From an uncultured Anaerolineae bacterium (lineage in GTDB: Bacteria; Chloroflexota; Anaerolineae; Fen-1058), in assembly GCA_964651475.1 (NCBI GenBank), contig CAZYXV010000012.1:1-64000 (forward strand): DNA of 64,000 nucleotides. Reading direction: 5' to 3'. This document shows, piece by piece, positions 1,871 through 36,477 of the stretch. The notes beneath the pieces are model-generated. The model saw only the letters and a list, made by a program, of their open reading frames with translations. It was not told the DNA's origin and searched no databases. How positions within the stretch are numbered: position 1 is the stretch's first letter; each line of letters starts with the position of its first letter. A program made the translations under genes and the position numbers.

Positions 1871-1898
1871 TTAGAAAAATCCTGACCTGTGGTATAAT
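1871..1898 (+). promoter_or_regulatory. Putative sigma-70-like promoter (TTAGAA-N16-tgtggTATAAT) about 410 nt upstream of the phosphatase gene
   Basis: Extended -10 tgtggtataat at 1888-1898 and -35-like ttagaa at 1871-1876. It would imply a long 5' leader. Confidence 0.35.
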
Positions 1899-2306: not shown

Positions 2307-4709
2307 ATGACGACCAAAGCAGATAATCACGTCAGGTCTTTTGATTCGCCGGGCCTGTCTGGCCAGGCAAGCATTATGCTATCAGGCGCGATGTTGGCGC
2401 TGGCGGTGGTGGTGATGATCGCGCTCCCCGTTCTCACGTGGCGTTGGGCCCAAAATCCCTTTCCCGCCGTATTATTTGGCCCCAGCTATATCGTCAGCGA
2501 CATAACACCCCCCAACCGGGAAAACACTCGTTTGGGGCTGGGCTCGTCCAGTCACCTGGATGCAGTGGACGGCGTCGAGCTAAACGGATCATTTGACCTG
2601 GAGCGATTAATGTCTGGACGCCAGGTTGGAGAACGTGTGACACTTGCACTTACCCGCCCAGATGGCTCCCGCCGCCAGGCGGTGGTTGCGCTGGTCCGCC
2701 TTGGCGCAGTAGATTGGGTCATATACGTGGCGCTGCCCTATCTCATTGGCCTGGTGTACGTCGTCACCGGCGTCTGGGTGTATCGCCAACGCTACAAGCA
2801 CTCTGATGGGCGGGCGTTTGGGGTGTTTTGCGCGGCGGTGGCGATTCTCACCGCTTCTACGTTTGAAAACTCGACTTTGCACATTTTGTCGTGGTTGTGG
2901 TCGGCGTGCGTCCCCCTGGCGGCGGGCGCTATTATTGGGTTGACGCTCGTCTTTCCGCAAGAGATGGCGCCAGCCAAGCGTTGGCCATTCTTGCGCTGGC
3001 TGCCCTACGTTGTGGGCCTGGGCCTGGCGCTCGTGGCGCTGCCGAGCATTTACAACGTGAAGGAGCCGTGGAGTTACGAAACAAGCTGGCGGTGGAGCCT
3101 GGCGTATCTTTTGGCGGGCATTGTATTCTTGTATGCCAGCGTGGGGTATCACCGCCTGCGTTCTCCTGCGCCCCTCGTGCGGCAGCAAACTCGCGTGATT
3201 TTGTGGGGCAGTCTGGCGGCGTTTGCGCCATTGCTTGTCGAATTGGTCTTGCTGATGGCGCCGGTTGTATGGCCTGCTTTGCCATCGCTTATGCTGCCGG
3301 CGCCCATATTTTTGCTGCCGCTGGCATTGTGGCCGCTGGCGTTGGGATACGCCATTTTGCGTTACCGGCTGTGGGATATTGACCTGCTCATCAATCGCGG
3401 CCTGGTGTATGGAACGCTGACAGTCTTGTTGGCCGGCGCCTATTTTCTCTTGTTGGCGGTTTTGACGCCCGCCTTTGTGTGGCTGACCGGACAGGCTGAC
3501 AATGCCACGGTGATTTTTGTGGCGACGGCGACGCTGGCGCTGATTTTCACGCCAGCGCGAGGCGCCGTCCAGGCCGCTATAGACCGCCTCTTTTATCGCG
3601 ACCGCCTTGATTTACGCGCTGCTCAAGGCGAGATCAGCCGCGCTCTAAGCACCACGCTCACGCTCGAACACGTCGTGCAATTGTTAACCGACGATGCGCC
3701 GCGCCGCCTGAGATTGGAACGCGCGACGGTGTGGCTGCACAGCCCCGATGGCCTTTTGCCCCATCCACCCGAATCGCCCGTCGCCGTAGAATCGGCGCCG
3801 CTGCTCGTTCCTCTCGGCAAGCAAGATGTGTATGCCATTGGCATGTCATTGGCGGGCCGTCCGCCCAATCGAGAAGAAGCGGACTTGCTAACCCTGCTAG
3901 GCAACCAGGCCAGTGTGGCGCTGGAAAACGTCCGGCTGGCAAAACAGTTGTCCGACCGCGCCCGCATCGAGCAAGAAATGCGCATTGCCCGCGAAACCCA
4001 GACGAGCTTGCTGCCCACCTCGGCGCCGCAATTTCCAGGCTGGGACATTGCCGGCTACTCACAGCCAGCCAGCGAAGTGGGGGGAGATTTTTACATTTAT
4101 CATCCATTAACAGATGGCAGCCTGGGGATCAGTGTGGGCGATGTATCGGGCAAGGGCATGTCTGCGGCGTTGTTGATGGGCGGCTCGGTTATCGCATTGG
4201 CGGCGCTCTGCCTGGACGATCCTACTCCGGCTGACTTGCTGCGGCGGATGGATCAGGTGCTGCAGCCCTATCGCGGATCAACCGGCCGCAATACGGCCCT
4301 GTGCTACGTGCGCCTGCCTGCGTCTGGCTCTGGTCCGCGCGCCATCCGCGCGGCCAACGCGGGCATGATCGCGCCGTTGGTGCGCCGCGCCAATGGGCAG
4401 GTAGCGTGGCTGGATGTGCGCGGGCTGCCGCTCGGCGCGCCGCGCATCGAAACGCACTATGCCGAGATGAGCGCCACGCTCGAGCCAGGCGACATGATCG
4501 TCATCGCCTCAGACGGCATCATCGAGCGCATGAACGCGGCCGGTGAATTGTTTGGGTTTGAGCGGTTCGAGCAAATGGTGGCTGCCTGCCCCTCCCACGA
4601 GAAGGCGGAACAAATCTGCAGCTTGATTCTTGAGCAGGTGGCGGCCTATGCGGCTTTGCGCGCGCCGCACGATGACATGACGCTGATTGTGGCCTGTGTG
4701 AGAGAGTAA
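2307..4709 (+). CDS. Membrane-anchored sensor with C-terminal PP2C/SpoIIE-type serine phosphatase domain (RsbU-like)
   Basis: 800 aa. The N-terminal half has multiple hydrophobic helices, the middle is GAF-like, and the C-terminus carries GGDFYIY...VGDVSGKGMSAALLMG...IASDGIIE motifs typical of SpoIIE/RsbU PP2C phosphatases. RBS aggag precedes the ATG. Confidence 0.85.
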   Translation: MTTKADNHVRSFDSPGLSGQASIMLSGAMLALAVVVMIALPVLTWRWAQNPFPAVLFGPSYIVSDITPPNRENTRLGLGSSSHLDAVDGVELNGSFDLERLMSGRQVGERVTLALTRPDGSRRQAVVALVRLGAVDWVIYVALPYLIGLVYVVTGVWVYRQRYKHSDGRAFGVFCAAVAILTASTFENSTLHILSWLWSACVPLAAGAIIGLTLVFPQEMAPAKRWPFLRWLPYVVGLGLALVALPSIYNVKEPWSYETSWRWSLAYLLAGIVFLYASVGYHRLRSPAPLVRQQTRVILWGSLAAFAPLLVELVLLMAPVVWPALPSLMLPAPIFLLPLALWPLALGYAILRYRLWDIDLLINRGLVYGTLTVLLAGAYFLLLAVLTPAFVWLTGQADNATVIFVATATLALIFTPARGAVQAAIDRLFYRDRLDLRAAQGEISRALSTTLTLEHVVQLLTDDAPRRLRLERATVWLHSPDGLLPHPPESPVAVESAPLLVPLGKQDVYAIGMSLAGRPPNREEADLLTLLGNQASVALENVRLAKQLSDRARIEQEMRIARETQTSLLPTSAPQFPGWDIAGYSQPASEVGGDFYIYHPLTDGSLGISVGDVSGKGMSAALLMGGSVIALAALCLDDPTPADLLRRMDQVLQPYRGSTGRNTALCYVRLPASGSGPRAIRAANAGMIAPLVRRANGQVAWLDVRGLPLGAPRIETHYAEMSATLEPGDMIVIASDGIIERMNAAGELFGFERFEQMVAACPSHEKAEQICSLILEQVAAYAALRAPHDDMTLIVACVRE

Positions 4710-4740
4710 AGGCTGGCAGGCCGGACACGCTCCGAAGACA

Positions 4741-6060
4741 TTAAAGCTCGTTCCCTGCCGCAATCGCCGCCAGGTTTTCCTCGGCATATTTGCTATCCTG
4801 GCGCGCTGCCTCTTCAAGCGCCTCTGGCGAAAATAACGCCAGGCGTTTCAGCGCCGCCGCCAGCATAACCAGCCCGCTGTTCGCTTTGCTCACGCGGCCA
4901 CGCGCCCGGTTAAGGTCAATGACGATTTTGCGCGCCGATGTGGTTATGTCCCAGTCTGGCGTCACAAATAGCCAATTCTCCGGCGTCATCAAGCGCAAAT
5001 AGTGGGCGGTTTTTTTGTACCCGTCGGGTGTGATAATGACCAGCGCGTCCGGGCAGGAGGCGCCGGTATAGCGCACCTCGCTTGGAGACAAGGTCACCTG
5101 GCTGATACTGTAGCCCGATTTGACCGTGACGGGGTAATCGTCGCGCTGCGCTGCCCACAGGCCAGAGAGGATGCCAGCCAATCCCACCAGCCGCGCCGCC
5201 GAACGTACCTTGCCGCCCGCCGAGCCGGCCGCCACCAGGTTAAACGTGCGGTCGAGCGTTGAAGAAAACAGGGGTGTTATTGGCTGCGCTTGCCCGAATG
5301 GTTTATGGCGCTCGTCGGCGTGCGCCAGGCGGTAAGCAGCGGCGTACTCGGGGCGATCTTCCTGGTGCAATACGCCGGTGTGGAATTTCAATTGCTCCAA
5401 AGTGCTCGTCAGCGCCTTGCGCGAAAAATCGTTGTTAGGCACGAAATAAGCCGTGCACAGTTCCCAAATATCCAGCAGGCCAAAGCCTTCGCGGCTGATT
5501 GCCTCCACTATCCGATCCGAAAGGTCTTTATCAAACGACGTGCCTCGATACACATAGCTCGCGCCATTGACCGCTGCCGTCGCGCAAATGTCCAGCGGGC
5601 GTTCCAGGTTGCCCTCGCGCGTGGTGGTCGTGATGCTGCCCTGCGGCGTGGTCACGCTGTGTTGCCCCCCCGTCATGCCAAAGTTTAGATTATTGAACAC
5701 CAACACTGTCACCCCCACGTTGCGCCGCGCCGCGTTAATCAGATGCGTCCCGCCGATGCCGCAGCCGCCGTCGCCCATCACCACAATCACTTTGAGATCG
5801 GGGCGGGCCAGCTTGATGCCGCTGGCGTAGGCCACGCTGCGCCCGTGCAGGCCGTGAAAGGCATTGACGTTGAAATACTGGTCGCTCAATCCCACGCATC
5901 CAATATCAGACACGATGACGGTTTTGCGCGGGTCGAGTTGGAGCTTGACCATCGCGCGGTTCAAGTGATCCAAAATCATGCCGTGCCCACAGCCGGGGCA
6001 AAACGGGTAGGGCGCTGCCGTGCGGAACGTTTGAATGGGTTCGGTGCTTGATGTGTGCAT
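4741..6060 (-). CDS. korB: 2-oxoacid:ferredoxin oxidoreductase beta subunit (TPP-binding) fused to a gamma-like domain
   Basis: 439 aa with CPGCGHG, GCxGxxD and GDGG TPP-binding motifs, plus a C-terminal gamma-subunit-like region. It starts 7 nt downstream of the alpha subunit stop. Confidence 0.85.
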   Translation of the reverse strand: MHTSSTEPIQTFRTAAPYPFCPGCGHGMILDHLNRAMVKLQLDPRKTVIVSDIGCVGLSDQYFNVNAFHGLHGRSVAYASGIKLARPDLKVIVVMGDGGCGIGGTHLINAARRNVGVTVLVFNNLNFGMTGGQHSVTTPQGSITTTTREGNLERPLDICATAAVNGASYVYRGTSFDKDLSDRIVEAISREGFGLLDIWELCTAYFVPNNDFSRKALTSTLEQLKFHTGVLHQEDRPEYAAAYRLAHADERHKPFGQAQPITPLFSSTLDRTFNLVAAGSAGGKVRSAARLVGLAGILSGLWAAQRDDYPVTVKSGYSISQVTLSPSEVRYTGASCPDALVIITPDGYKKTAHYLRLMTPENWLFVTPDWDITTSARKIVIDLNRARGRVSKANSGLVMLAAALKRLALFSPEALEEAARQDSKYAEENLAAIAAGNEL

Positions 6061-7221: not shown

Positions 7222-8407
7222 CGCCGTCGTCGTCAAACGCTTCTTCCCCCTCTTCCATCCATACGGGCGATAGCAGCACACCTAAAAGAAATTGCCCGAA
7301 CGCGCCATTTTCCCAGTAAGGAACAGCAGCATTGGAAAATTGCCCGTGAAGCAGCCGCGCCCTGAGGGCTATCGTAGGTAGACTATCTTGATCTTCAATG
7401 ACATTTTCCAAGTCCTGAAGCAGCTCGCTAAAGCGTTCCGGAGAGAACCTGGTTCTGATCAATTCAGGTAGACGCTGCTCTATAGAATCGAGCGCGTCGT
7501 TTTGCACGCGACTCTCGCTTTGATCCTCTTCAATGTGCCCGCCCCTCATCGCTGCCGCCACGTCGCTAGAAAATCCTTCGATCTCTTCCGGGTCAAAGAT
7601 CGCCAGAGCCAACTCGCCGTCGAGTTTTTGTTGTATGTCCCACGAGTCGTCCGTCAGTTCCATTTGGCGCCTGACGTAATCTGCCAACTCGGTGTTGGTT
7701 CCCACGGCTTCCCAAAAGGCAGTGTAGGCCGGCGTCTCTGCTTCCAGATCGAACACGGTTTCGACGTCGGGCTGGAACGCCTGGGCCAACCTGAGCGCGC
7801 CGGCCTCTTCTTTTTCCAGGGCAGACGCCTTGCTCAGAGCGCGCTGAAGCGCCACGTGCAAAATGCCGCACGTGCCCCATATTTCCGCTCTCGTGTCCAT
7901 GCGCAGCAGGAGTTCAACCGCCGCCGCCAGCGACAATGTGTCGGTTTGCCCGGCGCGCTTTAGCCTGCGCCGGCATTGCCCAAACCGGTTCAACACATCG
8001 CGCTGCAGCGCTGGATTGACCAGTTTAGCCACAGTGTTGATGTCTGCCTCCGAGGTAACATCTTTACGCTCTTCATCAGACATTCGCGCCAATTCTTCGG
8101 GGGCGGGAACGTACAGAGTATGCATGGTTACCGACGCTTGCAGCGCATCTGCCGGGTTAACCGCCAGCCCTTCAAATTCTGGCTCGTCGCACAGCCTGGC
8201 CGAATCGAGCATGGCTCGAGTGGCAAAAACGAACCATTCTTCTTTGTCGTCCAGGTCGTATCCTTCGAGCAGCGGCTGCATCTCTCGCCACAATTGTTCT
8301 TCGACCTTGCGAGTTTCCTGGCGGCGCCGGCGTTGGCTCTCGGAGCGGCGGCGCTTGGCTTGCTCGTGGCGAACTTGTTTTTTGGTTGGTTTGGATTTCT
8401 TTTTCAT
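7202..8407 (-). CDS. Hypothetical protein with a strongly basic N-terminus and acidic C-terminus
   Basis: About 401 aa from MKKKSKPTKKQVRHEQAKRRR... to ...DDDGDDDDEA. RBS gggagg upstream. No recognisable domain. Confidence 0.55.
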   Translation of the reverse strand: MKKKSKPTKKQVRHEQAKRRRSESQRRRRQETRKVEEQLWREMQPLLEGYDLDDKEEWFVFATRAMLDSARLCDEPEFEGLAVNPADALQASVTMHTLYVPAPEELARMSDEERKDVTSEADINTVAKLVNPALQRDVLNRFGQCRRRLKRAGQTDTLSLAAAVELLLRMDTRAEIWGTCGILHVALQRALSKASALEKEEAGALRLAQAFQPDVETVFDLEAETPAYTAFWEAVGTNTELADYVRRQMELTDDSWDIQQKLDGELALAIFDPEEIEGFSSDVAAAMRGGHIEEDQSESRVQNDALDSIEQRLPELIRTRFSPERFSELLQDLENVIEDQDSLPTIALRARLLHGQFSNAAVPYWENGAFGQFLLGVLLSPVWMEEGEEAFDDDGDDDDEA

Positions 8408-8474
8408 GTTGCCTCCCAACGCCATAACCTTGACGCGACGGCATAGAGTTTACCATTGGTTAGGGTTGCGGTCA

Positions 8475-8507
8475 AACAAAGGCCCCCGGCTCAATGGGCC
8501 GGGGGCC
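8475..8507 (-). terminator. Intrinsic terminator downstream of the ABC ATPase gene
   Basis: Minus strand reads ggcccccggcccattgagccgggggcc followed by tttgtttg. Confidence 0.5.
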
Positions 8508-8561
8508 ATACCATTCAATTTGTTCGCGTCGCTGCTGCGCCCTTGCGGCTATCGAGTCGCG

Positions 8562-9662
8562 TTACCGGATAGCCAGATCGTTCTTTTTATCAAAGACGTG
8601 GAAATTGCCCATGTTGATGACCATGTCTATCTCGTTGCCCACCCGGGCGCGAGTGCGCGGGTCAACCCGCGCCACGCACAGGTTCTTGCCAACGTACAGG
8701 TGCAAAAAGACCTCATTTCCCATCAACTCGGTCACGTCCACCTTGCCGCGCAAGTCGGCCGCGATAATGCCGGGGGCGGCGAACTCTTTATCAAAGATAT
8801 CTTCGGGGCGGACCCCCAGGATAACCTCGTCCCCCTTGTGGCCGTGCAGCGCCTGGGCGCGCTCGGGCGGGACGGGCAGCGAAAAGCCATCGCCTGCGAT
8901 TACCAATTTGCCGTCCTCTTCTTTGATACGCGCATCGAGGAAATTCATTGAGGGACTGCCAATAAAGCCAGCCACAAACTTGTTGTTGGGACGGTCGTAA
9001 AGCGTCTGTGGCGTATCCACCTGCTGCAATTTGCCCTCGCTGATCACCACGATGCGCGTGCCCATCGTCATGGCTTCCACCTGATCGTGCGTCACATAGA
9101 TGAACGTCGTCTCCAACTGGCGGTGCAACTTGGAAATCTCGGCGCGCGCCTGCACGCGCAGCTTGGCGTCGAGGTTGGACAACGGCTCGTCCATCAGGAA
9201 CACGGCCGGGTTGCGCACGATGGCGCGCCCTACCGCCACACGCTGGCGCTGGCCGCCAGAAAGCTGCTTGGGCTTGCGGTCGAGCAGGTGCGCGATCTCC
9301 ATCTTTTCGGCGGCCTCTTTTACACGCTTGTCAATCTCGGCTTTGGGCGTCTTGCGCAGTTTGAGCCCAAACGCCATATTCTCGTAGACCGTCATGTGCG
9401 GATAGAGCGCGTAGCTCTGAAACACCATGGCGATATCGCGATCTTTGGGTGGCACGTCGTTGACTAGGCGGTCGCCGATATAAATCTCGCCTTCGCTGAC
9501 CTCTTCCAGTCCGGCCAGCAAGCGCAACGCCGTCGTCTTGCCGCAGCCCGAGGGGCCAACGAATACCAGGAACTCTTTGTCGGGGATCTCGATGGAGAGA
9601 TTGTTGACGGCAACCACATTGCCCCAACGCTTGTATACGCCTTTGTAAACTACACTTGCCAT
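8562..9662 (-). CDS. Sugar ABC transporter ATP-binding protein (MalK/UgpC/MsmX family), solitary
   Basis: 366 aa with GPSGCGKTT Walker A, LSGGQRQR signature, the VFLMDEPLSNLD Walker B region, and a C-terminal TOBE/MalK-like regulatory domain. RBS ggaggt upstream. Confidence 0.9.
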   Translation of the reverse strand: MASVVYKGVYKRWGNVVAVNNLSIEIPDKEFLVFVGPSGCGKTTALRLLAGLEEVSEGEIYIGDRLVNDVPPKDRDIAMVFQSYALYPHMTVYENMAFGLKLRKTPKAEIDKRVKEAAEKMEIAHLLDRKPKQLSGGQRQRVAVGRAIVRNPAVFLMDEPLSNLDAKLRVQARAEISKLHRQLETTFIYVTHDQVEAMTMGTRIVVISEGKLQQVDTPQTLYDRPNNKFVAGFIGSPSMNFLDARIKEEDGKLVIAGDGFSLPVPPERAQALHGHKGDEVILGVRPEDIFDKEFAAPGIIAADLRGKVDVTELMGNEVFLHLYVGKNLCVARVDPRTRARVGNEIDMVINMGNFHVFDKKNDLAIR

Positions 9663-9695
9663 TCTTACCTCCTCTATGTGATTTGTTTTTTCTGG

Positions 9696-10889
9696 TCACG
9701 AATAGGCCAGCAGGTAACGATCTATCGCTAACGCGGCCGCGCCCACGGCGGCGGCGTCTGAACCCAATGTTGCTTGAGTAATGTCTACCGTCGAGTAAGC
9801 GGCGGGCGATGCGCGGCGCAGGACGGCCTGGCGCGCCGAGCTAACCAGCGTGTCGCCTGTTTCGGCCAACATGCCCCCAATCACAACCAGGCGCGGATTG
9901 AGCGCGTTAACCAGGCCGGCAATGGCCAATCCCAAATACTCGCCGGCCTCTCGCACAGCCGCCAGCGCTGCCAGGTCGCCCGCGGCGGCGGCCTCCACAA
10001 CGTCTTGCAGTGTGAGCCTGCCTAAACTCTCGCGCGTCAACGAGCGCGTGCGCTCCCAGGCCCGCGCCACCTCTTCAACTATAGCCGTCCCACCCGCCAA
10101 CGCCTCGAGGCAGCCCATATTGCCGCAGGCGCAGCGCGGCCCGCCTGGATCAACAACCACGTGTCCCAACTCGCCCGCTCCGCCGCTGCTGCCTGAATAA
10201 AGTTCACCGTTCAGGATGAATCCCGCGCCAATTGTATCGCCAGCGGAAACGAAAATTAAATCATCGGCGGCCTGTCCGGCGCCGCTGCAATATTCACCCA
10301 ATGCGCCAGCGTGGCGAGTATTGACGAGCGCGAACGGCGCGTCCACGTCAAGCTGCTCGCGCAAGAGCGATACGAAAGGGACCTCGCCAGACCACGCCTG
10401 CGGCGCAAACACGAGTGCGCTTTCACCAGCCGCATCTACCAGACCCGGCACACTGATTCCCAGGCCAACGAGACGATCCTCACCGGATACAAGCGCCTTG
10501 ACCAGAGCCGCCGCTTCGCGCATTGCATCGTTTGGCGCCGCCGCTCTAAACGAGCGCCTTGCTGAACGTATGACCTTGCCAGAGAGGTCAGTCAAAACGA
10601 CCAGAGCACGTCCGGCATCCACCTCGATGCCAATCGCCATGCCAGCCTGGTGGTTCACTTGCAGGCCAATCCTCCTCCGCCCCGCGCTACGGGACGGCAT
10701 TTCCATTTCGAGCAGTAGCCCCTTATCCAACAAGTCTGCCACGGTGGCCGATATGGCAGCCTTGCTCAAGCCGCTTTCCAGGGCGATTTCTGCGCGAGAT
10801 ATACCGGGGTGTCTGTGAACCAGCCATAATAACCTGGCTCTGCTGCCAATGCGCGCAGTGTTTGTTTGTGGATAAACCAACGTGGACAT
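9696..10889 (-). CDS. ROK-family transcriptional regulator (NagC/XylR-like) with N-terminal HTH
   Basis: 397 aa. N-terminal wHTH (LLWLVHRHPGISRAEIALESGLSKAAISATVADL) and the ROK zinc motif CACGNMGCLEALAGG. Confidence 0.85.
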   Translation of the reverse strand: MSTLVYPQTNTARIGSRARLLWLVHRHPGISRAEIALESGLSKAAISATVADLLDKGLLLEMEMPSRSAGRRRIGLQVNHQAGMAIGIEVDAGRALVVLTDLSGKVIRSARRSFRAAAPNDAMREAAALVKALVSGEDRLVGLGISVPGLVDAAGESALVFAPQAWSGEVPFVSLLREQLDVDAPFALVNTRHAGALGEYCSGAGQAADDLIFVSAGDTIGAGFILNGELYSGSSGGAGELGHVVVDPGGPRCACGNMGCLEALAGGTAIVEEVARAWERTRSLTRESLGRLTLQDVVEAAAAGDLAALAAVREAGEYLGLAIAGLVNALNPRLVVIGGMLAETGDTLVSSARQAVLRRASPAAYSTVDITQATLGSDAAAVGAAALAIDRYLLAYS

Positions 10890-10968
10890 GGTTTGCTTTG
10901 CAGAACAACCCTAATTTATTAGTTTGGTTTATGAACTAATATGTTGTATTTTATACTATTTCAACACT

Positions 10969-10997
10969 TTGTCAAGTGCTGGATATTGTGCTATAAT
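10969..10997 (+). promoter_or_regulatory. Strong sigma-70-like promoter TTGTCA-N17-tgtgcTATAAT
   Basis: ttgtca at 10969-10974 and tataat at 10992-10997, with extended -10 TGn. Confidence 0.55.
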
Positions 10998-11015
10998 GGC
11001 GCTACGAGAGAAACA

Positions 11016-11864
11016 ATGACGCAACACGAAGAATATGCCCCATCTTCAACCCGCGCTGCCACCCCCGGTCTGCTTGAACAAACCTGGCTGTGGTTAGGCA
11101 CTGTCCTCATCTTATCCGCGGCACTCATTGCAGTGTGGCTATGGGGTCTGCCCGGCGATTTGCTGCACAAGGCGGACCTGGTGGGGTACGCTATTTGCCA
11201 TCGCATTCCTGAACGGTCTTTTGTGATTGGCGGGCGGCACTTGCCGCTGTGTGCGCGCTGCATGGGCATTTACTTGGGAGTGTGGGGCAATTTGATTGTG
11301 ATGACGCTGCTGAAACGTGGACGCAGCGCGGAACTCCCCCGGCCGGCAATACTGGCCGTGCTGATGATGTTCGTCGTCTTGATGGGAATAGATGGCCTCA
11401 ATTCATACATGACATTTTTCCCTGGCGCGCCGCACCTGTACGAACCCCGCAACGAACTGCGCCTGTTCAGCGGCATGTTGCACGGCGTGACGCTGTCCTC
11501 GCTGGTCTATCCGCTTCTTAACCAGACCTTGTGGGCAGATGTGGAGTGGGCGCCGGCTCTGCGCAACTTTAGGGAGCTGGCACTCGTATTATTAACAGGG
11601 GCGCTAGGCGCTGGCCTGACCCTGCTGCGCATCCCGGCCTTGCTTTACCCGCTGGCCTTTATGGGCAGCTGCGGCGTGCTGGTGATGCTGGCGATGATTA
11701 ATAGCGTTATTGTCGTGACGATTTTGCGGCGTGAAAATCGGGCCACTGTTTGGTGGCAGGCCATAGGGCCGCTGGCGGTGGGCGTCGTCTTGGCTCTGCT
11801 GCAGGTGAGTTTTTTGGACATGTTTCGGGCGTACATTACACAGGCGTGGAACTTGCCGTTCTAA
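11016..11864 (+). CDS. Integral membrane protein, DUF2085-like (conserved CHRIPERSF and CARCMG motifs)
   Basis: Start set at MTQHEEYAPSS (internal ATG of ORF 10941..11864), downstream of the promoter. Multiple TM helices. The DUF2085 call rests on motif recollection. Confidence 0.6.
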   Translation: MTQHEEYAPSSTRAATPGLLEQTWLWLGTVLILSAALIAVWLWGLPGDLLHKADLVGYAICHRIPERSFVIGGRHLPLCARCMGIYLGVWGNLIVMTLLKRGRSAELPRPAILAVLMMFVVLMGIDGLNSYMTFFPGAPHLYEPRNELRLFSGMLHGVTLSSLVYPLLNQTLWADVEWAPALRNFRELALVLLTGALGAGLTLLRIPALLYPLAFMGSCGVLVMLAMINSVIVVTILRRENRATVWWQAIGPLAVGVVLALLQVSFLDMFRAYITQAWNLPF

Positions 11865-11866
11865 AA

Positions 11867-11897
11867 TTGACAAAAATTTGCCGCTTTGTGCTATAAT
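11867..11897 (+). promoter_or_regulatory. Sigma-70-like promoter TTGACA-N19-tgtgcTATAAT, near-identical -10 region to the promoter at 10969
   Basis: ttgaca at 11867-11872 and tataat at 11892-11897. Followed by RBS gaaggagg and ATG at 11950. Confidence 0.55.
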
Positions 11898-11949
11898 TTC
11901 ACATAGGTACTACTTACTGTCCCCAATTTTCATATAGAAGGAGGCTACA

Positions 11950-12624
11950 ATGGATTTCGGCAAGGCGTTCTCGTACGTGTTCGAAGATCAAGACTGGACC
12001 AAAAAGGTTCTACTGGGGGGCGTCATCAGCATCGTCCCCATCCTCAATTTTGCTGCGGCAGGCTATTCCCTCGAAGTGACTCAGCGCGTCATCAACAATG
12101 ATCCCAAGCCCATGCCAGAGTGGGATAATATTGGCGATAAACTCGTCAAGGGCTTTCTCGTTTTCGTCATTGGCTTTGTCTATTCGCTGCCCTCGACTAT
12201 TGTAGGCTGCATTTCTCAGGGGATAAGCGCTGCCGTTCAGCAAGGCGCCTCTTCGGCTTCGAGCGACGAAGCGACCGCCGCCGTAACGGCCATGGCGGCA
12301 GTTACCATGTGCCTGGCGTGTTTTCAAATTCTCTATAGCTTGTTTGTCGGCATAGTGCTGCCGGCGGCCATTGGCCTGTACGCTGCCAAAGGCGAGTTTG
12401 GCGCGGCGTTTCGCTTTGGCGAAGTGTTTGGGCTGGTGCAAAAGAACCTGGGCCTGTATTTGATGGTATTGATCATCAGCATCGTCGCCGGCATCGTCGG
12501 CGCCTTGGGCCTGATCGCGTGCGTCATCGGCGTTGCCTTTACGGTGTTTTATGCCTATATCGTTATGGGGCACGCTTACGGTCAGGCTTACCGCGAAGCC
12601 AGCGCGAACATTGGGCTGGTGTAG
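11950..12624 (+). CDS. DUF4013-like integral membrane protein
   Basis: 224 aa, MDFGKAFSYVFEDQDWTKKVLLGGVISIVPILNF..., multi-TM. N-terminal sequence resembles DUF4013 family members. Strong RBS. Confidence 0.6.
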   Translation: MDFGKAFSYVFEDQDWTKKVLLGGVISIVPILNFAAAGYSLEVTQRVINNDPKPMPEWDNIGDKLVKGFLVFVIGFVYSLPSTIVGCISQGISAAVQQGASSASSDEATAAVTAMAAVTMCLACFQILYSLFVGIVLPAAIGLYAAKGEFGAAFRFGEVFGLVQKNLGLYLMVLIISIVAGIVGALGLIACVIGVAFTVFYAYIVMGHAYGQAYREASANIGLV

Positions 12625-12643
12625 CCCGGAATAAAGGAGCGCG

Positions 12644-13213
12644 ATGAGCGGCGTGTTAAATGTTTTTACGGCTTTTGGACTATCTACTTCGGCGGGACTA
12701 AACGCCTACGTGCCGCTGCTCGTCGTCGCGCTCCTGGCCCGCTTCACGAACCTGATCAAGTTACAAGAACCCTGGACGGCGCTGACAAATTGGTGGATCA
12801 TTGGCCTGCTGGTTGTGCTGCTGATTGTTGAAATGTTGGTAGACAAGGTGCCCGCCGTGGATAGCGTCAATGACGTGATTCAGACCTTTGTCCGTCCAGC
12901 AGCGGGCGCGGTGCTGTTCGCGGCTTCGTCGAATGCAATCAGCGATGTTCATCCAGTGCTGGCCATTGCGTGCGGCATCTTGCTGGCCGGCGGCGTGCAC
13001 GCGGCCAAGGCCACGGCCCGCCCCGTCATCACCGCCACCACGGCAGGTGTAGGCAATCCCATCATCAGCGCTGCCGAAGATGGCGTCGCGCTCGTGACCT
13101 CGCTGCTGGCCGTGCTGGCGCCGGTGCTCATGGCCGCAACGCTCTTGCTGGCCGTGTTGACCATTGCCTGGTGGCTGCGACTCAAACAACGCGAGCGCGC
13201 CGCGTATTTGTAA
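12644..13213 (+). CDS. DUF4126-like integral membrane protein
   Basis: 189 aa with STSAGLNAYVPLLVVALLARF motif. 4-5 TM helices. Confidence 0.6.
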   Translation: MSGVLNVFTAFGLSTSAGLNAYVPLLVVALLARFTNLIKLQEPWTALTNWWIIGLLVVLLIVEMLVDKVPAVDSVNDVIQTFVRPAAGAVLFAASSNAISDVHPVLAIACGILLAGGVHAAKATARPVITATTAGVGNPIISAAEDGVALVTSLLAVLAPVLMAATLLLAVLTIAWWLRLKQRERAAYL

Positions 13214-13224
13214 GGAGTTTTATC

Positions 13225-13581
13225 GTGTCCCAAGAATATCCACCTTCTTATCAAACTGGTCCAACCACCAACAGCACCGCCGTCATCAGCCTGATTTTGA
13301 GTATCTTGGGTGCTATTGGCATCTTGCCTCTCATCGGCAGCATTGCCGGAATCGTTACGGGCAGCATGGCCAAAAATGAAATCGCTCGCAGCGGCGGGAT
13401 GCAGACCGGCGAGGGATTGGCGCAGGCCGGTGTGATCATTGGCTGGGTTGGCATAGTGCTCGCCGTGCTCGGGATTTGCGTGGCGTTGTTAATTGTTGCT
13501 GCGGCGTTTGGGCTTGGTTTTTTTGCCATCATGGCCGAGTCCACGCGCAGCCTGCTGCCCCTGGCCTTGCCGTTCGTGTAA
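13225..13581 (+). CDS. DUF4190-like small membrane protein
   Basis: GTG start after aggag RBS: VSQEYPPSYQTGPTTNSTAVISLILSILGAIG...GIVTGSMAKNEI..., two hydrophobic helices. Confidence 0.5.
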   Translation: MSQEYPPSYQTGPTTNSTAVISLILSILGAIGILPLIGSIAGIVTGSMAKNEIARSGGMQTGEGLAQAGVIIGWVGIVLAVLGICVALLIVAAAFGLGFFAIMAESTRSLLPLALPFV

Positions 13582-13595
13582 AAGGAGAGTCTGCT

Positions 13596-14225
13596 ATGAC
13601 GATTGACGATCAATGGGCATCCCCCCCAGAAGTGCCAACGCCGGACGATAAACTGGCGTCCATTCCAGAGCCTTCCACCGAGGCTCCGGCTGCTGCTCCT
13701 TCGCCCAGGCCAAGCGCCCCCGAGGCAACTGTACCGCCATACGAGCCAATGGCGCACCCTGTACGAGAGCAAGAAAGCCATGAACGCTCCTGGTCGCCTT
13801 CCCCCGGTTCCGCAGAGCTTGCGCCGCTCTCGCCGGCCGACGAGCGCACCTGGGCCATGCTGGCTCACCTGAGCGTGCTGGCGAACCTGGTCACAGGTCT
13901 CTTGGGGCCGCTGGCGGCGCTCGTCATTTACCTGATGTACAAAGACCGCTCTCGCTACGTCGCCTACCAATCTATGCAATCCATGGTCATGCAGCTCGTC
14001 TGTTGGGTAGGGGGCGGGATACTGGCGGTATTTGCGTGGATAATCAGCAGTGTCCTGGCTGTAATACTGGTTGGCTGCTTGCTGATGCCATTCGCCTTAC
14101 TCGTTAGCCTGCTGCCGCTCGGCGCTCTTGTATATGGCGTGGTGGGGGCCATACAGTGCAGCCAGGGGCAAGATTTTCGGTACTGGCTCGTTGGCGACTG
14201 GGTGCGCGGCACGTTGGAAGGATAG
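13596..14225 (+). CDS. DUF4870-like membrane protein with Pro/Ala/Ser-rich N-terminal extension
   Basis: ATG after aaggagag RBS. Core motif ERTWAMLAHLSVLANLV...ALVIYLMYKDRSRYVAYQSMQSMVMQL is typical of DUF4870. Confidence 0.6.
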   Translation: MTIDDQWASPPEVPTPDDKLASIPEPSTEAPAAAPSPRPSAPEATVPPYEPMAHPVREQESHERSWSPSPGSAELAPLSPADERTWAMLAHLSVLANLVTGLLGPLAALVIYLMYKDRSRYVAYQSMQSMVMQLVCWVGGGILAVFAWIISSVLAVILVGCLLMPFALLVSLLPLGALVYGVVGAIQCSQGQDFRYWLVGDWVRGTLEG

Positions 14226-14299
14226 CGCCGCAGCGCGCCTGATGCTAAAAGATATATCGGCGCTAGGGCGCCGTGATTTGCACAGAAAGGATAAATTCA

Positions 14300-14527
14300 A
14301 TGAGTGACCAATTCCAATATGCGTCCCCGCCGACTGCTCCCGAAAAAAAGAGCAACACGGGCCTGATTATTGGCATTGTGGTGGGGGTGCTTGTGTTGTG
14401 CTGTTGTTGCGCGATCCTGGCGGCCTTGGCCTTTCCCGCTCTTTTTGGGCCGGACATCGAGAATATCTTTGAAGAGATAGAGCGGGAGATAAGCTACACA
14501 CTGCCGACGCTGCTTGCGTTTGTGTGA
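14300..14527 (+). CDS. Small single-pass membrane protein with CCCC motif
   Basis: 76 aa: MSDQFQYASPPTAPEKKSNTGLIIGIVVGVLVLCCCCAILAALAF... Co-oriented with the cluster. Confidence 0.4.
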   Translation: MSDQFQYASPPTAPEKKSNTGLIIGIVVGVLVLCCCCAILAALAFPALFGPDIENIFEEIEREISYTLPTLLAFV

Positions 14528-14555
14528 TCCATCGCGCCATATTGGCTTGGAACGA

Positions 14556-14590
14556 AAAAGGCCGGAGATGTTCCCCGGCCTTTTTCTTAT
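14556..14590. terminator. Bidirectional intrinsic terminator between the membrane-protein cluster and lysS
   Basis: aaaaaggccggagatgttccccggcctttttc: perfect GC stem with A/T runs on both sides. Confidence 0.7.
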
Positions 14591-16104
14591 TTGCTCCGCA
14601 AATGCGGAAACAAGATCACCTCGCGGATGGTATCCTGGTCTGTGAACAGCATCGTCAACCGGTCCACGCCCGTTCCGAACCCGCCGCAGGGCGGCATGCC
14701 ATAGCTCATGGCGTTCAGGTAATCCTCGTCCATGGGGTGCGCCTCCTCGTCTTCGGCGGCGTACAATCGCGCCATTTCCAAAAAGCGCGCCTCCTGGTCG
14801 AGCGGGTCGTTCAACTCGCTAAAAGCGTTGCCACATTCCAGGCCGCCGATAAAGAACTCGAATCGCTCGACGTGCGTGGGATCGTCAGGCTTGCGCTTGG
14901 CCAGCGGCGAAATATCGCGCGGATAATCTATCACAAACGTTGGCTGGATGAGCCTGGGTTCAACGTAATCGCCCAGCAGCCCATCCACCAGCTTGCCCCA
15001 CGTAGCGTTTTCCGGCGCGCGCCCTCCCATGCTCAGAATTTCCTGGCGGAGGCTGGCTGCGTCTGGATGCATCACATAATCAATCTCGCTGTATTGCCGG
15101 ATGGCCTCGCGCATCGTCACGCGCTGCCAGGGCGGGGCCAATTCGATTAGATGGCCGCTAAAGGTGATCTGGGTTGAGCCGGTCACCTCTCGCGCTACAA
15201 AGGCCACCATCTCTTCCGTCAGCCTCATCACGTCGTCGTAATCCATGTAGGCTGCGTAAAATTCGAGTTGGGTAAATTCCGGGTTGTGCTTAAAGCTAAC
15301 GCCCTCGTTGCGGAAATCGCGCCCGATTTCGTACACCCGCTCATAGCCGCCCACCAGCAAGCGCTTGAGATATAATTCAAAACTGATGCGCAAATACAAA
15401 TCCTGGTGGAGTTGATTGTGATGCGTCGTAAACGGGCGCGCCGCCGCGCCGCCATAGATCGGCTGCAAGATGGGCGTTTCGACTTCCAGGAACCCCTGGC
15501 CATCCAAAAAGAGCCGCAGGGCCGACACAACACGCGCGCGCGTGCGAAACACCTGGCGCACATCGGGGTTCACAGCCAGATCGGCGTACCGTTCGCGATA
15601 GCGCGCCTCGGTATCTTTGAAGGCGCTGTAGCGCACTAGCTGTCCATCTACCACCTGTTCTTTGGCCATCGGCAGCGGCCGCAGCGATTTGGAAATGATG
15701 CGCCAGGCGCGCACGTGCAGGCTGACTTCGCCCGTCTTGGTGCGAAACAGTTCGCCCTCTGCTTCGACATAGTCGCCCAGGTCTGTGTCTTTGAGCAAGA
15801 CTTGATAAGACTCTTCGCCCACGTCATCTTTGCGCCAGTACAACTGCAAGCGTCCCGCGCCGTCTTCGATGTGACCAAAGCTCGTCTTGCCCATCGCCCG
15901 AAAGCTGACCAGCCGGCCCGTCACAGCGGCGCGCACTTGCCCGGCATCTGGCAAGAGCTGCCCTTCACTTGCCGCAAAGGTGGATTGAGCTTGAGCCGTC
16001 GTGCAGGTGCGCTTGACGCGCGCCGGGTAGGCCTCTATGCCACGCGCGCGCAAACGCTCCAATTTGGCCAATCGCTCTCGCTCCAGTTCATCTCGTGGTT
16101 CCAT
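14587..16104 (-). CDS. lysS: Lysyl-tRNA synthetase, class II
   Basis: 505 aa with class-II aaRS motifs (EFTQLEFY, GGLECGNAFSELNDP, PPCGGFGTGVDRL) and an N-terminal OB anticodon-binding domain. Confidence 0.95.
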   Translation of the reverse strand: MEPRDELERERLAKLERLRARGIEAYPARVKRTCTTAQAQSTFAASEGQLLPDAGQVRAAVTGRLVSFRAMGKTSFGHIEDGAGRLQLYWRKDDVGEESYQVLLKDTDLGDYVEAEGELFRTKTGEVSLHVRAWRIISKSLRPLPMAKEQVVDGQLVRYSAFKDTEARYRERYADLAVNPDVRQVFRTRARVVSALRLFLDGQGFLEVETPILQPIYGGAAARPFTTHHNQLHQDLYLRISFELYLKRLLVGGYERVYEIGRDFRNEGVSFKHNPEFTQLEFYAAYMDYDDVMRLTEEMVAFVAREVTGSTQITFSGHLIELAPPWQRVTMREAIRQYSEIDYVMHPDAASLRQEILSMGGRAPENATWGKLVDGLLGDYVEPRLIQPTFVIDYPRDISPLAKRKPDDPTHVERFEFFIGGLECGNAFSELNDPLDQEARFLEMARLYAAEDEEAHPMDEDYLNAMSYGMPPCGGFGTGVDRLTMLFTDQDTIREVILFPHLRSK

Positions 16105-36326: not shown

Positions 36327-36477
36327 AGAACAACACTCCTTTCAACCTGACCCAGCGGGCCGGTTTGCGCAATATCTGTGTATCCCCGCGCCATGCAGCG
36401 GGAACACGGTTGCTGATTATAACAGAAGCTTGCATACTGTCAAGCCGCGCGGGGCGCTGGCGGTTAGCCTCTCCGCG

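Follow-up and report, generated by a model that had tools for sequence, protein, structure and literature searches.

A same-strand module of small membrane protein genes around DUF4126 in Anaerolineae, including an uncatalogued CCCC protein family

The window analysed here is a stretch of 64,000 nucleotides (64 kb) from an uncultured Anaerolineae bacterium (contig CAZYXV010000012.1). It carries a cluster of six plus-strand genes for small membrane proteins, g1 to g6. Five of them belong to families defined by a domain of unknown function (DUF): DUF2085 (g1), DUF4013 (g2), DUF4126 (g3), DUF4190 (g4) and DUF4870 (g5). The sixth, g6, encodes a single-pass protein with a CCCC motif. Among the five DUF families, functional literature was found only for DUF4870. 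This family, also called HOTT, belongs to the Tic20/MamF-like superfamily and is described as widespread and otherwise uncharacterised, with an architecture of a re-entrant-like helix, a charged loop and two further membrane helices (PMC11628618). The g5 product matches its profile (PF09685) well above threshold. However it is not a protein of magnetosomes, it has a Pro-rich tail of 80 aa at its N-terminus, nothing in the cluster points to protein translocation, and g5 represents a non-conserved add-on to the other genes. DUF2085 corresponds to COG3815-type predicted membrane proteins. The g1 product matches this domain and has its C-H-R...C-x-R-C signature, but the domain spans only residues 61-161, while the g1 subfamily is composed of proteins of ~275 aa with seven transmembrane (TM) segments and includes a conserved loop, D126-G-x-N-S-Y...P-x-x-P-H-L-Y-E-P. 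The g3 product is a full-length, high-scoring member of DUF4126. The Anaerolineae members of this family differ from the Micromonospora-type members in their neighbours: the former are accompanied by DUF2085, DUF4013, DUF4190 and CCCC genes, the latter by a divergent nucS gene.

Two kinds of described proteins can be compared with g6. KdpF and CydX are small single-pass accessory subunits encoded beside their membrane partner. By analogy, g6-type genes, which are tiny, predicted to encode single-pass proteins and always located directly downstream of DUF4126 or DUF4190, may be of a similar kind. However g6 shows no sequence relation to KdpF or CydX, and its intramembrane CCCC motif and variable acidic or Pro-rich N-terminal tail, which can reach ~240 aa in the family, set it apart. 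The NCBIfam entry NF040945, named 'CCC motif membrane protein' (cut-off 65 bits), resembles g4 only, and weakly (25.1 bits), while g6, the true CCCC protein, does not match it.

An earlier first-pass annotation of the window had listed six consecutive plus-strand membrane-protein genes and assigned five of them to DUF families. The six genes are present at 11016-14527, and all five assignments score above the Pfam gathering cut-off, used here to define membership. The g1 gene (11016-11864, 282 aa) encodes a DUF2085 protein (PF09858; 84.9 bits for a cut-off of 25, E = 5.5e-24, profile positions 1-88 of 90). It is followed by g2 (11950-12624, 224 aa; DUF4013, PF13197, 107.9 bits for a cut-off of 26.9, positions 4-167 of 168) and g3 (12644-13213, 189 aa; DUF4126, PF13548, 176.8 bits for a cut-off of 27.5, positions 2-174 of 175). 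The g4 gene (13225-13581, 118 aa) has a GTG start, and its product combines a Pro/Tyr-rich N-terminal tail with a DUF4190 domain (PF13828; 60.1 bits for a cut-off of 35). In g5 (13596-14225, 209 aa), the DUF4870/HOTT domain occupies residues 83-199 (68.8 bits for a cut-off of 25). The product of g6 (14300-14527, 75 aa) has no match in Pfam-A, nor does its homologue from locus L015, and its NCBIfam matches are all far under their cut-offs (15.4 bits for 50, 12.8 for 450, 12.5 for 179.65 and 12.5 for 33). The same six product lengths are found in independent public gene calls on two identical contigs. All six products are integral membrane proteins and are mutually unrelated: comparison of their profiles did not support a common origin by divergence of paralogues (hhalign probability at most 8%) and the cluster is therefore not a paralogue array. 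A kinship between DUF4013 and Yip1 was likewise not supported (at most 8%). No MerT, MerC, MerF or other metal-transport family was present among the Pfam and NCBIfam matches at E values up to 1. The g1 to g5 products are thus new members of catalogued families of uncharacterised function, while no description of the CCCC family, or of the module presented below, seems to exist in the libraries searched.

With g3 as anchor, a scan restricted to one genome per species returned 80 loci, nearly all from Chloroflexota (Anaerolineae, Anaerolineales, Caldilineales, Ardenticatenales/Ardenticatenia, Thermoflexales, and entries labelled "Chloroflexia" or "Chloroflexota") and one from an uncultured bacterium. 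Partners were detected among the six-frame open reading frames (ORFs) of these loci by means of the window proteins and of iterated hidden Markov models. At least one of g1, g2, g4 and g6 adjoins g3 in 61 of the 80 species-level loci, always on the same strand. Several architectures recur: g1-g2-g3, with or without g4; g1-g3, with or without g4-g6; g3-g4-g6; g2-g4-g3-g6; and g3-g6, sometimes with a second g6. The genes located just outside the module belong to 44 families over 69 loci on the upstream side and to 43 families over 68 loci on the downstream side. With more than 40 families per side, adjacency within the module is therefore kept while its surroundings change. DUF2085, DUF4013, DUF4126, DUF4190 and the CCCC family thus form a conserved module of variable composition in Anaerolineae. 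The same-strand adjacency in 61 of 80 loci with such diverse flanks, together with the constant position of the CCCC gene in a second scan (25 of 25 cases, see below), makes it reasonable to infer a shared function, possibly within a complex.

The first-pass annotation had read the co-clustering of all six genes as a sign of a membrane complex or a stress module, and had raised the question of whether they are scattered in related genomes. Five of them do recur together and their linkage makes a shared function likely; DUF4870 has to be left out of the core. It was found among related loci only in L001, L002 and L084, i.e. in this lineage and on one other contig, and judging from this distribution it is a lineage-specific addition and not a conserved member of the module. 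The full six-gene set is present only in the lineage of the window itself, and a variable subset is found elsewhere. In L084, a restriction-modification cassette (Eco57I-like protein and BsuBI/PstI endonuclease, 7422-9936) is inserted between the DUF2085 end and the DUF4126 end of the module. The module is otherwise intact around the cassette and also holds the DUF4190, CCCC and DUF4870 genes, followed by uvrC. Other small genes accompany the module in some loci: those for Yip1, DUF5518 and an unassigned Cys-rich protein of 161 aa are found within it or contiguous with it, and those for DUF554 and LysE flank it. Yip1-domain proteins are encoded at the module in L055 and L068. Cys-rich proteins with four TM segments lie inside it in L004 (2000-2482) and L068 (2280-2726); they exhibit GCC...GCCC motifs, and one of them matches DUF5518 at threshold.

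Small proteins of the CCCC kind usually lack functional annotation. A total of 34 members of this family, from 62 to ~244 aa, were gathered from the related loci. Their N-terminal tail is variable, often long, and acidic or Pro-rich. Next come a K-K-x-N-T motif and some 30 residues of hydrophobic character, and then a short amphipathic or hydrophobic C-terminal tail. The sequence LLCCCC is central in the hydrophobic stretch and three of its four Cys positions are at least 90% conserved. A reciprocal scan of metagenomes with g6 as anchor gave 29 strong small matches, of which 25 were assessable, and in all 25 the g6-type gene is located immediately downstream of a DUF4126 or a DUF4190 gene. The architecture g1-g3-g6 prevails (15 of 29), followed by g3-g6 (6) and g1-g3-g4-g6 (3). 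The CCCC protein is a candidate dedicated small subunit. In the window, the g4, g5 and g6 products all have Pro/Tyr-rich N-terminal tails.

As far as sequence features can tell, the cluster is a real operon: the genes lie on one strand, are separated by short gaps, are preceded by promoters and end at a single terminator. The gaps are of 19 nt between g2 and g3, 11 nt between g3 and g4, and 14 nt between g4 and g5. The tight spacing and strong ribosome-binding sites described in the first pass hold for g2 to g5, all of which have AAGGAG-type sites, but not for the two ends of the cluster: the site of g1 is weak and the leader of this gene very short (~12 nt), and g5 and g6 are separated by 74 nt. 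An attenuator or terminator in this last gap was considered and rejected, the hairpin found there being no better than those of shuffled sequences (z = -0.32). Upstream of the cluster lies a divergent gene for a ROK/MarR-type regulator (9696-10889, minus strand) and downstream a convergent lysS (14587-16104, minus strand), followed by greA.

The two promoters with a common tgtgcTATAAT element and the closing bidirectional terminator that had been reported for this cluster are all present. P1 (10969..10997, plus strand) consists of TTGTCA, a 17-nt spacer and the extended -10 element tgTGcTATAAT, with 11 of 12 consensus matches and the TG present. P2 (11867..11897, plus strand) is internal and consists of TTGACA (11867-11872), a 19-nt spacer and tgTGcTATAAT (TATAAT at 11892-11897). 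Because of this 19-nt spacer it was missed by the promoter scanner, which covered spacers of 16-18 nt. P2 starts 2 nt past the g1 stop codon and no terminator lies in between, so that transcription from P1 probably continues into g2. P2 is kept in the nearest species-level relative (L004) as TTGACA-19-tatgcTATAAT, and more distant relatives have a weaker version of it or none that could be detected. At the other end of the cluster, an intrinsic terminator hairpin (14554..14586, both strands; AAAAAGGCCGG...CCGGCCTTTTT) is located between the stop codons of g6 and of the convergent lysS, with a predicted energy of -27.9 kcal/mol for a 73-nt stretch (z = -3.3). An A-run and a T-run border it on its two sides, and it can therefore act in both directions, for the g6 side and for lysS. 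Rfam gave only sub-threshold matches for the terminator region, to the terminator ends of small RNA models. No riboswitch or leader RNA that would hint at a ligand was found, no Rfam element being present.

The 11-mer shared by the two promoters, TGTGCTATAAT, occurs exactly twice in the window. When one mismatch is allowed, 3 sites are found for 0.34 expected, a number reached in 0 of 100 shuffles. In the first pass this common -10 element had been taken as a sign of co-regulation. However the shorter TGnTATAAT is itself over-represented in the window (5 sites for 0.5 expected), and P1 and P2 have little in common past the sigma-70 extended -10 and -35 consensus. TGnTATAAT being general in the window, P1 and P2 are therefore best seen as strong consensus instances rather than as the signature of a dedicated regulator, which was rejected, and no specific regulon is indicated. 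The motif suggests instead a general strong-promoter consensus of the organism. The other three sites are found in promoter-like contexts at 1890-1898 (plus strand), 36416-36424 (minus strand) and 63216-63224 (minus strand), and that at 36416 is accompanied by a perfect TTGACA at 17 nt. Facing the ROK/MarR gene, a divergent promoter-like site, TTGACA-16-TAAAAT (10948-10975, minus strand), overlaps P1 back to back. From this arrangement, an effect of the ROK protein on the transcription of g1 is conceivable. In other loci, the ROK gene is not conserved as a neighbour.

DUF4126 is under unusually strong constraint. The g3 product shares 62-78% identity with the 27 Anaerolineae homologues aligned to it, and 54-78% when all 80 genome loci are considered. 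In 84 sequences, 56 positions reach a conservation of 90% or more. Many of these are charged or polar: N20, E63, D67, K68, D73, N76, D77, R84, H119, K122, R126, E145 and D146. With so many residues of this type, DUF4126 is more suggestive of an active or translocation site than of a passive scaffold. No PDB entry was recovered in a profile search with g3. In g1, residues C61, H62, C79, R81 and C82, which form the C-H-R...C-x-R-C signature, are invariant in 29 homologues. The AlphaFold2 (AF2) model of this protein is a bundle of seven long TM helices (predicted local distance difference test, pLDDT, 91.2; predicted template modelling score, pTM, 0.86), in which a beta-hairpin (residues 68-79) is bracketed by C61-H62 and C79-x-x-C82. 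These residues form a plausible, putative metal site in the model. No sequence relative of g1 was found in the PDB, and no solved structural relative. In g2, D13, W16, K19, G38-Y39, C124 and C191 are conserved in 42 sequences. The conserved Cys positions of the module are thus C61, C79 and C82 of g1, C124 and C191 of g2, and C34-C37 of g6.

The explanation that best fits these data is that the products of the cluster would assemble into, or act on, a single membrane machine centred on DUF4126. In a chromosomal operon of this Thermoflexales-like bacterium, P1 would drive g1 and P2 would drive g2 to g6, with likely read-through from P1 and one bidirectional terminator. DUF4126 would provide the conserved core, which the DUF2085, DUF4013, DUF4190 and CCCC proteins would join in genome-dependent subsets. 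The CCCC protein would be an obligate small accessory subunit; the optional ones would be DUF4013, DUF4190 and DUF2085, the last with its putative Cys/His metal site, and DUF4870/HOTT would have been added late in this lineage. The invariant Asp, Glu, Lys, Arg, His and Asn residues of DUF4126, predicted to be intramembrane or interfacial, would mark the place where a small polar or charged substrate, for instance an ion or a metal, is translocated or chemically converted. We regard the prospects of such a hetero-oligomeric machine, in which the CCCC protein would serve as dedicated small subunit, as evenly balanced. The class of its substrate can be suggested only very tentatively as ion, metal or thiol chemistry. 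Similarly, it is rather unlikely that the five families are subunits of an undescribed Anaerolineae-wide complex carrying out soft-metal or thiol chemistry, or transport, in the membrane; if they were, this would provide first functions for five DUF families and would define a new microprotein family. As it stands, the same-strand grouping of four DUF families and an uncatalogued CCCC family around DUF4126 gives a concrete and testable start for deciding which proteins to study together, within the practical limit that the hosts of the module are mostly uncultured Anaerolineae.

Several observations weigh against a DUF4126-centred machine. DUF4126 is found without partners in 19 of the 80 loci (several of which end at contig edges), and the partner set differs between genomes. 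DUF4126 was nearby in only one of three look-ups anchored on DUF2085 (L084), g1 being therefore the loosest partner. The arrangement g3-(g4)-g6-uvrC-cysS is common to a subclade of 14-16 loci and could be plain inherited synteny. Actinobacterial DUF4126 genes are without any of the module partners. The genes flanking the module are miscellaneous housekeeping genes, apart from scattered DNA-repair genes; a functional theme among them was rejected, and none related to metals, redox or regulators emerged. No riboswitch adjoins the cluster. The AF2 model of DUF4126 is poor (pLDDT 68) and an internal duplication of the kind seen in transporters was not supported (probability ~5%). With 17 Cys among 1097 residues (1.55%, versus 1.28% in other ORFs), the cluster has an ordinary Cys content; overall cysteine enrichment is rejected and the thiol or metal idea therefore has to be drawn from the conserved positions only. 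Many of these points would be expected if the genes encoded independent small membrane proteins that are merely co-transcribed, their neighbourhood being kept by inherited synteny and by common requirements for expression or for insertion into the membrane. Under this explanation, the variable composition and order of the module, the solitary DUF4126 genes, the DUF2085 genes that occur alone elsewhere, the different neighbours of actinobacterial DUF4126, the wider synteny with uvrC and cysS in one large subclade, and the drift of unrelated small membrane genes (Yip1, DUF5518, DUF554, LysE) into and out of the locus would need no further cause. However the linkage outlasts the change of flanks, the strand never differs, and the CCCC gene always follows DUF4126 or DUF4190. 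Moreover, adjacency is kept when the order is permuted (g2-g4-g3-g6 versus g3-g4-g6), which is typical of selection for co-expression. Simple co-transcription, the main rival, is possible, if on balance doubtful.

DNA-repair genes are recurrent neighbours of DUF4126, although not in the window itself. In Anaerolineae, uvrC is co-directional just downstream of the module in 16 of 68 loci, as well as in L084, and other repair genes occur nearby in some loci: ung upstream in 6, the gene for a dGTPase in 4, uvrA in 2 and DinB_2 in 3. In Micromonospora-type loci, nucS, which encodes a mismatch-repair endonuclease, is divergent and immediately upstream of DUF4126 in four of four cases with differing outer flanks. 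Such an association would be consistent with a membrane module for DNA damage or envelope stress, for instance damage-induced membrane effectors or division inhibitors expressed with repair genes. This seems improbable, since lysS and greA take the place of repair genes downstream of the cluster in the window, the nucS pairing is absent from the Nonomuraea DUF4126 locus, repair neighbours are limited to subclades, and the promoters look constitutive; no LexA-type operator turned up, although no search was aimed at one. A narrower proposal concerns g1 and g6 only. DHHC-type enzymes act on juxtamembrane Cys clusters, and DUF2085 might, by analogy, be a membrane thiol enzyme that acylates, metallates or redox-cycles the cysteines of the CCCC protein. 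In its favour are the confident seven-TM model, in which a hairpin is surrounded by the conserved C61-H62 and C79-x-x-C82, the strong conservation of the CCCC motif and the prevalence of g1-g3-g6 among the metagenome architectures (15 of 29). However g1 does not match any solved protein in sequence, g6 is found without g1 in the cluster at many loci, and the DHHC analogy is drawn from general knowledge, so that an enzyme-substrate pair is very improbable. Finally, the abundance of small hypothetical genes is the only feature of the cluster that recalls a horizontally acquired island, such as a defence or phage-derived membrane module. Its GC content (0.555-0.609) is like that of the remainder of the window, the PADLOC defence models gave one match only, at chance level (g2, E = 0.006), the flanks are housekeeping genes and the module is conserved throughout the class, in chromosomal surroundings. 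Such an origin is effectively refuted.

Beyond Chloroflexota, the DUF4126 family includes 3186 representatives at 50% identity. The search for the module in other phyla led to actinobacterial DUF4126 genes with nucS or other neighbours, and a plasmid search gave two unannotated matches only. The four nucS-DUF4126 loci (L150-L153) are from Micromonospora chersina, Rugosimonospora acidiphila and two metagenome contigs, and the pair is located at about 4240-5900 in each. One clade of DUF4126 proteins (P0324, P0358, P0332, P0328, P0313 and P0366) exhibits Pro/Ala-rich C-terminal tails of 100-200 aa. These tails share a terminal motif, ...YP[GS][DN][AG]PTLPG..., and an internal one, TTV[AQ]ATNQAPY, which may be docking motifs for some partner. 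In Acinetobacter baumannii, a DUF4126 gene adjoins the gene of a "zinc ribbon-containing protein", and both are listed as candidates from RNA-seq (Table 2 of PMC13114124). This pair echoes the pairing of DUF4126 with the Cys/His-motif protein DUF2085 observed here.

Two further features are found elsewhere in the window. Downstream of the genes for lysS, greA, PIG-L and a peptidase M19, a minus-strand gene (18703-21219) encodes a protein of 838 aa that resembles the major vault protein (MVP). Its MVP shoulder domain (PF11978) scores 88.5 bits, and its match to the Vault_3 repeat stays below threshold. Between 33046 and 35012, on the minus strand, the GC content falls to 0.44-0.49, compared with ~0.59 elsewhere. 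This patch includes a gene for an N6/N4 DNA methylase (PF01555) and an adjacent ORF of 318 aa without Pfam match, which together probably correspond to an acquired restriction-modification pair.

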